Positions 11,342-18,751 of a stretch of 64,000 nt of DNA are shown here, piece after piece. Both the position numbers and the translations under genes were made by a program. This DNA comes from a virus. Under the pieces are notes generated by a model. That model was not told the DNA's origin. It worked only from the letters and a program-made list of their open reading frames with translations, and made no database searches. The first letter of the stretch is position 1. Every line of letters begins with the position of its first letter. The stretch is taken from IMG/VR virus record IMGVR_UViG_3300017716_002931, positions 1 through 64,000 of that record. One strand, 5' to 3'.

Positions 11342-12295
11342 TTACTTCCAGCGAAGATCTTTCTTGAGTTCATCAATAACGTTTTTATCTACATCATTCA
11401 TGTTCTTAGACAACATATCAAGAAGTTCGTCCAAAGTGTATGACTTGTTGCTGACTTCTGTTTTTGATTTGAGATCTTGAATCGAATCAACAATTTTAGA
11501 CAGTGTATTTTTGTACATATCCAAGTGTGATTGATCTACAATTTTTGCAACACCCAAAGCGTTTGGCATAATTGATTTGACTGCGTGAATCACCACGCCT
11601 CCCATCATATCAAATACCATGAACGCAGCTTTGGCAATAGGATTAGTATTAGACAAAATACGAAGAATCAAAAATATCAAACCAAATACCAAAATGAAAA
11701 TTAGACACGTCGTGACAAATCGTTTGACTCCGTAAAAGATTGCACCCAACCCAAAAAAACCGTTGACCTTATCGACGGTTTCTTTATACTCATCTGATTT
11801 CTTTGCAACATCTTCAGCTGTTTTTTGAAGTTCTTTATTTTTGTCTTGAAGGTCTTGTTTGAGTTGATCTCGTTCTTCTTGAATTTGATTTATCTCTTTG
11901 TCTTTATCAGATAACATCTTACGACCACGTATTTGTTCTTCTTTAACGGCAGATGTTAAACTATCTACTATCTGTTTCATCTTGTTAATTTCATCAATGT
12001 TAGGAACGCCTACAAGACTTACAGTTCTATCGTTTAGTTCTTTTGCAACAACCACCGCCGGTTGTGCATTTGTAACTTTTGAAAGAGCATAATCCACACC
12101 AGATGCAGTGGATTGAACTTCTTTTACTTTGTCTTTGTTGTTTTCGTTCAAAGCGTCTTTGGCTTTTTGAACTTCTTGTTTTACAACCTCTACTTTGCTT
12201 GTACTTTCATTCTTTTTCTGCCACCAAGTAGTACATCCAGACATTAGTAGTAAAAACGATAGTGATAACACCGTAACTGTTTTTTGTATTTTCAT
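11342..12295 (-). CDS. Lipoprotein with coiled coil and internal TM helix (spanin candidate)
   Basis: Signal II/lipobox LLLMSG-C; long heptad region; hydrophobic FVTTCLIFILVFGLIFLILRIL. Confidence 0.6.
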   Translation of the reverse strand: MKIQKTVTVLSLSFLLLMSGCTTWWQKKNESTSKVEVVKQEVQKAKDALNENNKDKVKEVQSTASGVDYALSKVTNAQPAVVVAKELNDRTVSLVGVPNIDEINKMKQIVDSLTSAVKEEQIRGRKMLSDKDKEINQIQEERDQLKQDLQDKNKELQKTAEDVAKKSDEYKETVDKVNGFFGLGAIFYGVKRFVTTCLIFILVFGLIFLILRILSNTNPIAKAAFMVFDMMGGVVIHAVKSIMPNALGVAKIVDQSHLDMYKNTLSKIVDSIQDLKSKTEVSNKSYTLDELLDMLSKNMNDVDKNVIDELKKDLRWK

Positions 12296-12840
12296 AAATT
12301 TCTTTCAGTTTGACTTTTTGTAACCGCAAAATATTGAACTATACGATTGATAACATTGTCCGCAATATCTTCATACCAATCGTTGGGCTTATACTCAGTG
12401 GTACTAATACCAGTATGCGTCGATTTTAAATTTCTCTTTTCAAATTCTCCTTTTAGAAATTGAATCAAATCTTGTTTCAATGCATTTGTATTTTGAACCG
12501 CAAACACTTCTCTGAGAGATTCTTTGTAACTAACACGTACTGGCTTTCTTCCACTCGCCCCTCCACCCTTTTTTCCATGTCCAGATTTTCTTTGGGCTGC
12601 CAGTTTTCTACGAACCCAATTTCCTATTGCTTTCTTACCACCCTTGGATCTCAATCGAGCTGCGTATTTGTTTCCCAAACAAGCAGCATATGGTTGACCT
12701 TCTTTACGTGATCCACACGCACCAACAGACTTTCCAGACGTATTAAAAGCCTTCCAATTTCCTTTTGGATTGGTTTTGCTGAACCATTGGGACAAATCTT
12801 CGTCCAACTGTTCTGTCTTCTTTAGTAGTTCGTCTTCCAT
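12292..12840 (-). CDS. Basic Cys-containing phage protein, probable internal head protein
   Basis: LDE-DLSQWF...W...CG......YAACL motif; K/G-rich. Confidence 0.55.
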   Translation of the reverse strand: MEDELLKKTEQLDEDLSQWFSKTNPKGNWKAFNTSGKSVGACGSRKEGQPYAACLGNKYAARLRSKGGKKAIGNWVRRKLAAQRKSGHGKKGGGASGRKPVRVSYKESLREVFAVQNTNALKQDLIQFLKGEFEKRNLKSTHTGISTTEYKPNDWYEDIADNVINRIVQYFAVTKSQTERNL

Positions 12841-12841
12841 A

Positions 12842-13174
12842 TTAACCTTTGATCAACTGCCGTGTCTGTTGAACTGATACTTCGTTGTGCATGGGTACTC
12901 CCATTTTACTTTTCAACATCATAAGTGCTGCTTTTGGATTCATTCTTCCAAAATTGAATCCGAATATACCATTCTTCTGACAGAAATCAGAAAGAGCATC
13001 AATATCTTCTTGTGGAAATTCTTGAGTGGGAGGAAGTTGTGTATCTTCTCCGTTCTTTTTCCTACGAACCAACATTTGATAAATAGGATCATTTTGAGAA
13101 GCAGCAATTTCGGTGCCGTGACTCATAAAATTCTGAAATGCTGGCATGTTTTGTGTAGAAAAATCCATAATCAA
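12842..13174 (-). CDS. Hypothetical protein
   Basis: 110-aa ORF coupled within the operon. Confidence 0.65.
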   Translation of the reverse strand: MIMDFSTQNMPAFQNFMSHGTEIAASQNDPIYQMLVRRKKNGEDTQLPPTQEFPQEDIDALSDFCQKNGIFGFNFGRMNPKAALMMLKSKMGVPMHNEVSVQQTRQLIKG

Positions 13175-16723: not shown

Positions 16724-16920
16724 ATTGTGTTAGGATTGTTCTCGTTTTTGTACTTTGAGGCTTCTTTTTCAGCTTGTTTCATTTTATCATATCCATTTGA
16801 AGGATATGCATAATCAATTTGCCATCTACGACCTTTCATAGCTGGATGACCAATCAATGGATCTTGCATTGTTTTTTGGGATCCAACAATATACCAATCG
16901 CCTTTTAAGTTAGAATCCAT
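16720..16920 (-). CDS. Hypothetical protein
   Basis: 66-aa ORF overlapping both neighbours. Confidence 0.55.
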   Translation of the reverse strand: MDSNLKGDWYIVGSQKTMQDPLIGHPAMKGRRWQIDYAYPSNGYDKMKQAEKEASKYKNENNPNTI

Positions 16921-18739
16921 AATGACGTTTCTTTCTCTTTTCTTCCCACTTTTCTTCCATCAACTTTTTAATTGCTTCAAAGTTACCGTATTTTTGTTGT
17001 GTTCGCTCTTTGTTTTTGGATTGATCTTGAAGATCTTTCAAAATCTGATTGATTGCCTGATTTTGGTTTGAATTCTCGTTCATTGGTTGTTCTTTTTGTT
17101 TATCATTAACAACAGCATCGATACCATCGATAATAAAATTAGCTACCTTCTTGATAATAGTCATGTTCTTGATGACCGCATCTTTATCAGCGTTCCATAA
17201 AGCAAGATATGTTGCTTGATGTGTCACTGGAAGATCATAGTTCTTCAATACCGTATATGAAATTGATTCAGCTTGAAGTTCTGCTTGAGATCTTGTCAAC
17301 TTAAGAGTATATTCATCACCAAAAAATACAGAACTACCTTTAAAGTGTAATAGTGAGTGAGCAATTTCATGTATTAATGTAGCAAGTTTATTGACACCTG
17401 CAATATTGCTTGTCAAATTGATGTGGTCTCCCATTGCCCATCCCATTTCTCCGCCCTTTGCATCGGAGTGGGTAATCTTGATACCTTTGTCTTTACAAAA
17501 TTCCAATGCACATTCAAGTATTTTATCCGCAACTTCACTTGGAGTATTTGGATCGTGCCATTCTGGCTTCTGTGCGTTAATACCTTTTTCTTCTGCGTCT
17601 GTGTCACTAATATCAAAAACCGGAACGGCTCTGAAATACATTGAATTTCTCTTTGTAATTTCAGTGTCAAGTCCTTGATCTCCAGACTTAACATCATCTT
17701 CCTTCTTAGTGATGGGAGCGTAAATATAAATTGCAGTTGCGCCTTTTTTTACTGTTACTCCCATCTTTTTCCACGCATTGAATCCAGCAACATGAGTTGA
17801 ATTTGGTTTTTGAATGAAAATCAACAATGAGTTGTTTAAACTATACTTTCTAAATCTTTTACTAAATCTTAAATATTCTGCAACCTGACCACTAGTAGAT
17901 GCACCGTGTACAGCATCAGCAAGTTGTTTAATAAACCCGTCAATCTTAATTGCAAGTTGTTGATTTTTACTGATATTAGCATCGCCCATCACAAAATCAG
18001 GAAGATCTTCTATCTTTTGAATCAAATCTTCTAATTTGGAATCACCCGATGGTTCGATCCATGTATTCTTTTTTACATCCCACTTGTATCCCGAATTGAT
18101 GTATCGAATAACCGATGTTGCTACGTCAAATTTATTAGCATCAATAGTCCACGCAGTAATGGTTGAATCCCATCTAAAACCATTTCCTTTTAACGCATCT
18201 TTATTACGATACGTTTCATTTCCTGCTTCTCTCGTATTTTCCAATGTAGATATTACTACAATTTTATTGTTCGCCCGGTCAGCCCGAAGATTCAACTTCT
18301 CATTTAGATCTTCTTCTTCAAGCAAAAGTGGTTCATAAGACTCATTCATCATGTCAGGAGTCATACCCAACATTCCAAGATCACGATAATGACGTGGGTT
18401 TACTTTCAAGTTTTTGACTACAGTTTCCTTTGCAGACATCTTGTTCTTGTAAATCTGTTTTTTCATTTCATACTCCATACCTTGAATAATATCGTCTGGA
18501 GATACTTTTTGTTTAACTGCGTCAACATCTTTCTTGTATTGTTCGGGATCAATCTTGGATTTAACGTCTTGATCCACAGGTGGAACGATGTTTACCTTGG
18601 AACTGTCGGCAGGAAACGAACCGGGATTCTGTGTAACATCTGGAGACGCATATGTGCCGGTATGTCCTGACATGGATGCCATTCCTCCAACAGATACCTG
18701 ACTCATGTTATTTTCTTTGAAGAAGTCTTTATAGGTCAT
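16910..18739 (-). CDS. ArdC-like ssDNA-binding + zincin metallopeptidase domain protein with extra N-terminal modules
   Basis: RFRKYSLNNSLLIFIQKP..THVAGF.AWKKMG..VKKG..AI.I.AP, F..VPVFDISDT; HEIAH and ELQAESISY. Confidence 0.85.
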   Translation of the reverse strand: MTYKDFFKENNMSQVSVGGMASMSGHTGTYASPDVTQNPGSFPADSSKVNIVPPVDQDVKSKIDPEQYKKDVDAVKQKVSPDDIIQGMEYEMKKQIYKNKMSAKETVVKNLKVNPRHYRDLGMLGMTPDMMNESYEPLLLEEEDLNEKLNLRADRANNKIVVISTLENTREAGNETYRNKDALKGNGFRWDSTITAWTIDANKFDVATSVIRYINSGYKWDVKKNTWIEPSGDSKLEDLIQKIEDLPDFVMGDANISKNQQLAIKIDGFIKQLADAVHGASTSGQVAEYLRFSKRFRKYSLNNSLLIFIQKPNSTHVAGFNAWKKMGVTVKKGATAIYIYAPITKKEDDVKSGDQGLDTEITKRNSMYFRAVPVFDISDTDAEEKGINAQKPEWHDPNTPSEVADKILECALEFCKDKGIKITHSDAKGGEMGWAMGDHINLTSNIAGVNKLATLIHEIAHSLLHFKGSSVFFGDEYTLKLTRSQAELQAESISYTVLKNYDLPVTHQATYLALWNADKDAVIKNMTIIKKVANFIIDGIDAVVNDKQKEQPMNENSNQNQAINQILKDLQDQSKNKERTQQKYGNFEAIKKLMEEKWEEKRKKRHYGF

Positions 18740-18744
18740 AGCCT

Positions 18745-18751
18745 ATAAATA
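18745..18751 (-). promoter_or_regulatory. TATTTAT motif, putative phage late promoter
   Basis: 5 nt upstream of the ATG heading the 18739-11342 operon; the same motif recurs before other operon starts. Confidence 0.5.

Follow-up and report, generated by a model that had tools for sequence, protein, structure and literature searches.

An operon of seven minus-strand open reading frames (ORFs), which overlap or abut one another and occupy positions 12292-18739 of the window, carries signatures known from the internal head proteins of phage T4. The window comprises the first 64 kb (64,000 nucleotides) of the 95,212-bp IMG/VR viral contig IMGVR_UViG_3300017716_002931, which derives from an uncultured giant phage of lake water. 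The operon encodes, among others, a 609-amino-acid (aa) protein with an ArdC cassette, a 219-aa protein with DUF5661 and DUF5872 modules, a 344-aa nucleotidyltransferase and a 621-aa protein with a GH24 lysozyme domain. Judged from its sequence, it has about an even chance of encoding late-expressed modular cargo that is directed into the head, matured by the head protease and probably delivered by injection. This reading is suggested by conserved leader sequences that recur on otherwise unrelated proteins, by conserved hydrophobic-x-Glu sites at the joints between modules, by a cassette lying between two such sites, by a promoter-like motif shared with structural genes and by a head protease encoded in relatives.

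Two relatives serve for comparison. G001 comprises 171 kb, and its orthologue of the 344-aa protein is 78% identical. G003 comprises 295,831 bp with a CheckV completeness of 100%, its polymerase is 68% identical to that of the window's genome, and both genomes are collinear from the DUF5661 gene through the tail module.

Leader peptides

The T4 internal proteins IPII and IPIII begin with MKTYQEFIAE, IPI with MKTFKEF.. and gp24 with MAKINELLRE (read from NC_000866). In the T4 leader, head targeting depends on residues 4 and 7, and processing on residues 8 and 10 (PMC9026906). Predicted short N-terminal propeptides of this kind, which end in (L/I)-x-Glu and are hydrophobic around residues 4, 7 and 8, are present in three proteins of the operon. 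These are MTYKDFFKE, MKYTDFFIHE and MIKLADIAKSILKE, which had been singled out in the first-pass annotation of this DNA and indeed start at positions 18739, 16723 and 16067, respectively. MKYTDFFIHE has F7, I8 and E10, and a comparison of MTYKDFFKE with TYQEFIAE reveals identical T, Y, F and E residues and the conservative pairs K/Q, D/E and F/I.

N-termini of the M.Y.DFF type occur in only two ORFs of the 95-kb genome, both of which belong to the operon (the 609-aa and the 219-aa protein). The M-x-Y-K/T-D-F-F/Y leader is also found on both orthologues in G001 and once in G003, as MKYTDFY at the start of a 243-aa protein without a DUF5661 match. The N-module of the 609-aa protein represents a family of 110 representative clusters, in which 66 members with a comparable N-terminus were counted. 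An [ILVMF]xE site lies within the first 30 residues in 61 of these 66 members, compared with 23 +/- 3.6 in shuffled sequences, and none lies at residues 31-60. At the 61 sites, P3 is Ile or Leu in 48 cases and P1' is Asn in 44.

The second leader type begins with MIKL. The 344-aa enzyme starts with MIKLADIAKSILKE-GGKLFG, and a MIKL start is present in 89 of 120 homologues of this enzyme, which are 42-95% identical. The MIKL leaders are 9-20 residues long and end in [L/I]xE right before an invariant GGKLFG, with MIKLMDLLKE as the shortest form. In the AlphaFold2 (AF2) model of the 344-aa protein, the leader forms a helix (residues 4-11) that stands apart from the body, and confidence is lowest at residues 12-16, with values below 50; the cut region is thus predicted to be disordered.

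The MIKL leader is not confined to this enzyme family. In G003, the same leader is found on 18 proteins. Compared without their leaders, these form 10 groups that show no BLAST similarity to one another. A less strict N-terminal pattern, with hydrophobic residues near positions 4, 7 and 8 and then x-Glu, is present in 14 of 366 G003 ORFs; its frequency at internal positions would predict about 1.4. Of the MIKL-leader genes of G003, four are located in the region that encodes sheath, terminase, protease, scaffold and capsid proteins. Six different codons are used for Leu4 of the leader, which points to selection on the peptide, and Lys3, Asp6 and Leu8 are also encoded by many synonymous codons.

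Among the proteins of G003 that bear a MIKL leader are a 990-aa protein with a ligase-like KWDG motif (149370-152342) and a homologue of 5'-3' deoxyribonucleotidases (81112-81714). The nucleotidase homologue of the window's own genome (genome positions 93207-93842) starts with MISLKSTLPE. G003 also encodes an expanded leucine-rich-repeat-like family at 207253-216903 and 264263-267180 (loci L038 and L041), which exists in two forms: at least nine copies have the leader MIKLKDLLLE..PRRMEDR, and others are leaderless and start with MK.I.GDV.L..L.L.E.P.

Head protease and capsid cleavage site

In T4, cleavage takes place after Glu65 of the capsid protein gp23 and after residue 10 of gp24. G003 encodes a protease of the responsible S77 type (PF03420, E 1.2e-27), and its gene forms a T4/immuto-like block together with terminase, portal, scaffold and capsid genes. 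Flavobacterium phage immuto also encodes such a protease (PF03420, E 6.9e-36). When the capsid proteins are aligned, the cut sites fall into one column, which reads FLTE/A in T4 gp23, LLRE/S in T4 gp24, IVSE/A in immuto and LLNE/A in the G003 capsid protein (the slash marks the known or predicted cut).

Modules related to those of the operon are located near head genes in other T4-like phages as well. In immuto, genes 191-195 directly upstream of the large terminase gene encode DUF5661, WVxAKL repeats and many LNE sites, and their leaders end in ..FLTE-N and ..FLVE-N; leaders and modules of this kind are also present in immuto genes 199-202. In the cyanophages Bellamy and B23, related basic modules are encoded between the small and the large terminase genes, and gp122 of Bellamy starts with MKSFKQFQE. 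In Vibrio phage VPs20, DUF5661 is part of a DUF2213 protein of the head module. The regions 107020-109028 of Synechococcus phage Bellamy (L012) and 151042-152172 of B23 (L011) encode small, very basic, Cys-rich module proteins, which include a DUF5872-like module, a CWKGY..PNCV motif and DUF5661.

Module joints and the ArdC cassette

The first-pass annotation had also listed hydrophobic-x-Glu motifs at presumed domain borders, and all of them (MMNE, DLNE, PMNE, LLSE, SMKE, SINE, LIEE, ELEE, FLSETLNE, KIQE, QLDE and SLRE) are present. In the 621-aa protein, the joints are MKE41, INE110, LIEE165, LEE229, LSE419/LNE423 and, as a candidate, IQE479. BLAST comparison with 120 homologues revealed three major breakpoints, at residues 38-42 (MKE41), 229-231 (LEE229) and 419-422 (LSE419/LNE423), and two minor ones at residue 110 near INE110 and at residues 154-164 near LIEE165. 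All three major breakpoints are at most two residues away from a hydrophobic-x-Glu site, a coincidence that was reached in 57 of 100,000 trials (~6e-4) in which 12 sites were placed at random.

The joints are also conserved in sequence. E41, E110 and E229 are invariant in an alignment of 33 sequences, and the P1 Glu and the upstream hydrophobic residue are kept in homologues with 40-65% identity. In more than ten mutually unrelated upstream modules, the last residue is a Glu directly before the sequence NAEM, with the hydrophobic residue mostly at P3 and otherwise at P4 or P2. Past LDE/LEE229, other phages carry a different module, and most homologues of the 621-aa protein terminate within a few residues of FL(A/S/T)E, in a short aromatic tail. 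A mini-module of about 55 residues (LDYEGGVG.HE..FYAKA...C....C), which forms residues 424-479 of the 621-aa protein (13600-13767) after LNE, is found in other phages at the C-terminus of Pol-beta-like enzymes (P0365, P0366) and is always entered via LNE or LSE. The aromatic tail, which reads YFGFNYYF on most of the lysozyme-module homologues P0142-P0240, could be a C-terminal propeptide as in T4 Alt and gp21.

Exchange of modules at such sites is also apparent in the other proteins. The G001 orthologue of the 609-aa protein, P0128, has only 186 aa and consists of the N-module and the C-tail. As it aligns only to residues 1-134 and 553-607 (BLASTP), the ArdC block (residues 134-555) constitutes a cassette between MNE133 and MNE555; a further motif, DLNE147, is located inside this cassette. 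Fused DUF5661-polymerase proteins in some phages keep the leader internally (..PMSE-LRRIKLAEIAKQVLIE-GGKLFG), and in one relative the Pol-beta-like body is joined straight after MLSE, the equivalent of LLSE165 in the 219-aa protein.

A different explanation of this architecture is provided by the concept of polyvalent proteins (Iyer et al. 2017), according to which the proteins would act whole or would be cut by their own ArdC zincin, with the joints being linkers or recombination scars of cassette swaps. The 609-aa protein indeed combines ArdC-N and a HEIAH zincin in one polypeptide, processing by own metallopeptidase domains is what Iyer et al. propose, and plasmid ArdC is transferred at full length (PMC5512222). 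The duplicated MNE flanking the cassette could also be a microhomology footprint of its insertion. However, G001 and G003 have the same leaders and joints without the ArdC/zincin cassette, which weakens self-processing by the ArdC zincin. The persistence of the P1 Glu and the hydrophobic residue at the identities given above and next to more than ten unrelated modules, as well as the match between the joint motif and the predicted cut site of the capsid protein of this lineage, also speak against the polyvalent explanation, which appears unlikely.

Promoter-like motif and predicted timing of expression

A promoter-like motif, ATATTTATA, precedes the 609-aa gene and is common to the operon and to structural genes. 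The 7-mer TATTTAT is the most enriched one upstream of start codons, with 16-fold enrichment in the window's genome and 8-fold enrichment in G003. In G003, the motif precedes almost every structural gene, including those for tape measure, tail tube, fiber, head completion and portal proteins, and also clusters of leader genes; in the window's genome, it also precedes the tail tube gene and the ORF adjoining the tape measure gene. Its location only 4-8 nt upstream of the ATG of many late genes suggests that late messages are leaderless or nearly leaderless. By analogy with the P1 Dar proteins and T4 IPI, an ArdC protein that is produced late would be useful only if it were carried into the next cell. 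The sequence TATTTATA is the reverse complement of the T4 late promoter TATAAATA.

The proximity of this motif to the start codon bears on the explanation that the leaders and joints reflect chance, or a constraint on the nucleotide level at the start of late messages such as a translation or promoter element, and contain no peptide signal. A promoter-like motif this close to the ATG (4-8 nt) could constrain the first codons, and hydrophobic-x-Glu is a common tripeptide motif with a bulk density at background level. A constraint of this type is nevertheless disfavored, because the leader codons vary synonymously. Furthermore, a MIKL start is absent from abundant structural proteins whose genes carry the same upstream motif, the leader is retained as an internal peptide in fusion proteins, and the permutation result for the breakpoints argues against coincidence. 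Altogether, this explanation is very improbable.

Observations that weigh against packaging

Several observations weigh against the reading of the operon as packaged and processed cargo. The first-pass annotation had taken a motif density no higher than in replication enzymes as evidence against its proposal, and the density is in fact not higher: the clamp loader and a helicase are denser in such motifs. For [ILM]xE, the operon has 12.6 sites per 1000 aa compared with 11.2 in the other 104 ORFs (z 1.65 relative to shuffles), and no bulk enrichment of [ILM]xE and its variants was found in the operon relative to the rest of the genome and to shuffled sequences. A weak post-hoc excess is seen for [ILM]NE, with 5 sites found and 1.2 expected. 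Density is a weak test, and the signal is carried by the position and the conservation of the motifs. An excess of sites in disordered stretches of the AF2 model of the 621-aa protein (pLDDT 56) is not significant (p ~0.07, hand estimate). An obvious short leader is missing from four of the seven proteins: no clear leader was found in the 66-aa, 110-aa and 182-aa proteins, and the 621-aa protein would require a propeptide of 41 residues. Searches with PF03420 (S77) and PF07068 yielded no protease match in the window's 95-kb contig, G001 and G002, all of which are fragments and hence uninformative in this respect. A literature search did not yield a proteome of any relative. The packaged-polyprotein proposal of the first-pass annotation is therefore supported in part, namely by the T4-like leaders, the joint sites, the cassette and the promoter-like motif, while the density of motifs remains at background.

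Two more of these observations also favor an explanation without packaging, in which the leaders would be amphipathic helices for oligomerization, membrane association or stability of proteins with a late role in the cytoplasm or the envelope, for example as a lysis module. One is the MIKL leader on a deoxyribonucleotidase homologue, a metabolic enzyme and an odd item to inject. The other is the fusion of the 66-aa and 219-aa genes in most relatives, in which the Y-x-D/E-F-F/Y element (..SYREFYEHLTEE..) becomes internal; the Y-R-E-F-Y element can therefore not always serve as an N-terminal signal. In addition, the lysozyme with its Ala/Gly-rich hydrophobic stretch is encoded two genes upstream of a lipoprotein with C-terminal membrane helices. 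In G003, however, about 24 kb separate the lysozyme gene from the lipoprotein gene, and this lack of linkage weakens the interpretation as a lysis module. The leader always closes with the cut motif of the head protease at a variable distance from the start, four leader proteins are encoded within the head morphogenesis cluster, and the late production of an anti-restriction protein would, as outlined above, make sense only with transfer into the next cell. An unpackaged role thus has a low probability.

Operon layout and domain identities

The features of the operon and its surroundings are compiled in Table 1. The first-pass assignments of ArdC, nucleotidyltransferase and lysozyme domains all hold. 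In the 609-aa protein, ArdC-N (PF08401, E 1.9e-10, residues 281-375; phrog_7245, E 1.9e-20, residues 284-549) is followed by a HEIAH zincin motif at residues 457-461, which is the ArdC arrangement of ArdC-N and a subsequent HExxH metalloprotease domain. The 621-aa protein consists of a 41-residue N-piece, a helical WVKAKL module, a basic Cys module, a second WVKYKL module, an Ala/Gly-rich hydrophobic stretch (residues 234-248), the GH24 lysozyme, the mini-module and a C-terminal domain. The lysozyme belongs to its class by its Pfam match (PF00959, E 1.1e-13); in the alignment of homologues, the conservation of E305, D309 and T310 reaches at least 90%, and G306, G307, G314 and H315 do not vary. 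Two or more effector domains are therefore combined per polypeptide, with a DUF5661-like module, ArdC-N and the HEIAH zincin in the 609-aa protein and helical and basic modules, GH24 and the C-terminal domain in the 621-aa protein.

Table 1. Positions of the operon genes, leaders, promoter-like motifs and the adjoining lipoprotein gene in the window
Feature	Position	Strand	Remarks
Promoter-like motif ATATTTATA	18744..18752	-	5 nt upstream of the ATG of the 609-aa gene
609-aa modular protein	16910..18739	-	leader, Gly-rich stretch and DUF5661-like N-module, ArdC cassette, basic C-tail
Leader MTYKDFFKE of the 609-aa protein	18713..18739	-	predicted cut after FKE9; cf. T4 IPII/IPIII MKTYQEFIAE
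ArdC cassette	17075..18340	-	residues 134-555 of the 609-aa protein; BLASTP vs P0128, PF08401, phrog_7245
66-aa ORF	16720..16920	-	ATGA overlap with the 219-aa gene
219-aa protein	16064..16723	-	leader, DUF5661 (residues 32-74), LLSE165 joint, basic DUF5872 module (residues 169-217)
Leader MKYTDFFIHE of the 219-aa protein	16694-16723	-	
344-aa Pol beta/lambda-like nucleotidyltransferase	15033..16067	-	phrog_24943, AF2, Foldseek
Leader MIKLADIAKSILKE of the 344-aa protein	16026-16067	-	
Second promoter-like motif ATATTTAT	15044..15051	-	7 nt upstream of the 621-aa gene, within the 3' end of the preceding gene
621-aa modular protein	13171..15036	-	GH24 lysozyme (residues 307-407)
110-aa ORF	12842..13174	-	no known family; conserved in G001
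182-aa basic protein	12292..12840	-	Cys-containing basic module, QLDE14, SLRE111; conserved in G001
317-aa predicted lipoprotein	11342..12295	-	LLMSGC lipobox, coiled coil, C-terminal membrane helices

The 344-aa protein had no match in a Pfam search. Its AF2 model (pLDDT 90) has a Pol beta/lambda-like palm and thumb, and a Foldseek search with this model retrieved Pol beta/lambda (E 5e-7, probability 1.0, TM 0.37-0.5). G62, D63, D65 and D121 are invariant in the enzyme family. With the palm fold of the model, the G-[SD]..D-x-D motif and a third Asp, the predicted structure places the protein in the Pol beta superfamily/family X. Pfam searches identified DUF5661 and DUF5872 in the 219-aa protein, and in a literature search on these two domains no paper was found that names either. 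Pfam searches with the 66-aa, 110-aa and 182-aa ORFs, P0128 and four leader proteins of G003 revealed no significant family, and PDB sequence searches with the 344-aa and 609-aa proteins yielded nothing usable. The 182-aa protein has 35 Lys and Arg residues and 19 Asp and Glu residues.

The boundaries of genes in this island are freely fused or split: the 66-aa and 219-aa genes (16720-16923) correspond to a single gene for 266-306 aa in most relatives. In the 621-aa protein, the Ala/Gly-rich hydrophobic stretch (14293-14337) is located directly past LEE229 and ahead of the lysozyme domain, and a cut at Glu229 would yield an architecture akin to signal-anchor-release (SAR) endolysins. The predicted 317-aa lipoprotein resembles a unimolecular spanin or a superinfection-exclusion lipoprotein in its architecture. 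Its gene is a conserved anchor downstream of variable leader-bearing genes, which are represented here by the operon; the homologue in G003 (271379-272374) is preceded by four different MIKL-leader genes.

Origin of the contig

The operon belongs to a T4-related, immuto-like freshwater phage of about 300 kb, a size that is deduced from the CheckV completeness of 31% for the 95,212-bp contig. T4-type replication genes on the contig encode a family-B polymerase, a clamp loader, UvsX, a gp32-like single-stranded DNA-binding protein (SSB), a DnaB-like helicase and a ribonucleotide reductase (RNR). A tail module with tube, gp26-like hub, tape measure and gp25-like wedge protein is located at the far end of the contig, and its homologues keep the same order in immuto and G003. 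The host is probably a member of Bacteroidota. No DNA similarity to cultured phages was detected. In tblastn searches of cultured phages, the 621-aa, 609-aa and 219-aa proteins matched isolated modules only (in cyanophages, immuto and Vibrio phage VPs20), and P0128 had no match. A homologue, P0361, is encoded on a JGI contig of 289,645 bp.

Comparison with known systems

The closest known system is that of T4, in which the S77 protease gp21 removes the capsid-targeting sequence of IPI, IPII, IPIII and Alt as well as the gp24 propeptide. Both systems share leaders that span 9-20 residues, are hydrophobic near positions 4, 7 and 8 and end in (L/I)-x-Glu, the use of one leader on unrelated, fast-evolving anti-host proteins and, in the relatives of the phage studied here, a T4-type head module with portal, S77 protease, scaffold and gp23-like capsid protein. 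In contrast to T4, there are two leader types, and MIKL is found on 18 proteins of G003 compared with a handful of proteins in T4. The predicted cargo also includes large multi-modular proteins, with conserved internal hydrophobic-x-Glu joints and a cassette between two joints, and the host is probably a member of Bacteroidota and not an enterobacterium.

The giant phages phiKZ, 201phi2-1 and SPN3US likewise have many head-internal proteins, which a gp21-related protease cleaves behind Glu, in some proteins at several sites (PMC5694885, PMC9026906). Their inner-body and ejection proteins are cut by gp175/gp245 after (S/A/G)-x-Glu or A-x-Glu. These phages represent a different lineage, in which propeptides mostly have more than 100 residues and P3 is small, and neither a shared short portable leader nor cassette-bounded enzymatic modules have been described for them. 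Polyvalent proteins (Iyer, Burroughs, Anand, de Souza, Aravind 2017) similarly combine ArdC-N, zincin, peptidoglycan hydrolase and DNA-binding modules and are predicted to travel with the invading DNA (PMC5512222). In that model, processing depends on the own metallopeptidase, whereas the joints described here bear the motif of the head protease and persist without a zincin; in addition, the modules are spread over an operon, in which some gene boundaries are fused or split between relatives. The Dar system of phage P1 (DarA, DarB, DdrA/B, Hdf and Ulx) is also an operon-encoded anti-restriction set, whose members are incorporated into the head and injected along with the DNA. It has no sequence relationship to the operon, and its loading depends on an ordered set of Dar proteins and not on a short cleavable leader.

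Proposed mechanism and its meaning

The mechanism proposed for the operon is that of T4, extended to modular polyproteins. Short amphipathic N-terminal leaders of the two types, MIKL..[L/I]xE and M-x-Y-K/T-D-F-F..E, may attach the proteins to the scaffolding core within the prohead, in the manner of the T4 capsid-targeting sequence. The gp21-type (S77) head protease would then cleave after the hydrophobic-x-Glu that closes each leader, and the same protease would probably cleave the conserved hydrophobic-x-Glu joints in the 609-aa and 621-aa proteins. The freed ArdC/zincin block, the Pol-beta-like nucleotidyltransferase, the GH24 lysozyme and the small basic modules may remain packaged in the head and exit, and thus be injected, together with the DNA. 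More tentatively, and with somewhat less than even confidence, it is suggested that the head protease doubles as a polyprotein maturase, so that any cassette placed between two hydrophobic-x-Glu joints behind a leader would be packaged, released and injected. Relative to the literature that was searched, the leader types, their number, the conserved internal joints in multi-enzyme proteins and the joint-bounded cassette are new.

If the head protease acts as such a maturase, the injected arsenal of uncultured T4-related phages could be readable straight from sequence. If the operon indeed encodes cargo for the head, the capsid targeting of T4, described for a few small internal proteins, would be a general cargo-loading system in large environmental phages, with a recognizable address label and a standard joint for the swapping of enzymatic cassettes, and proteins injected as a first strike could be predicted from metagenomes. 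The cargo would include components of interest for anti-defense, namely ArdC with its zincin, the lysozyme and the Pol-beta-like enzyme, and the presence of a late-type promoter on an anti-restriction gene would be accounted for. The system would also be a natural source of leaders and linkers with which foreign proteins could be loaded into phage heads.

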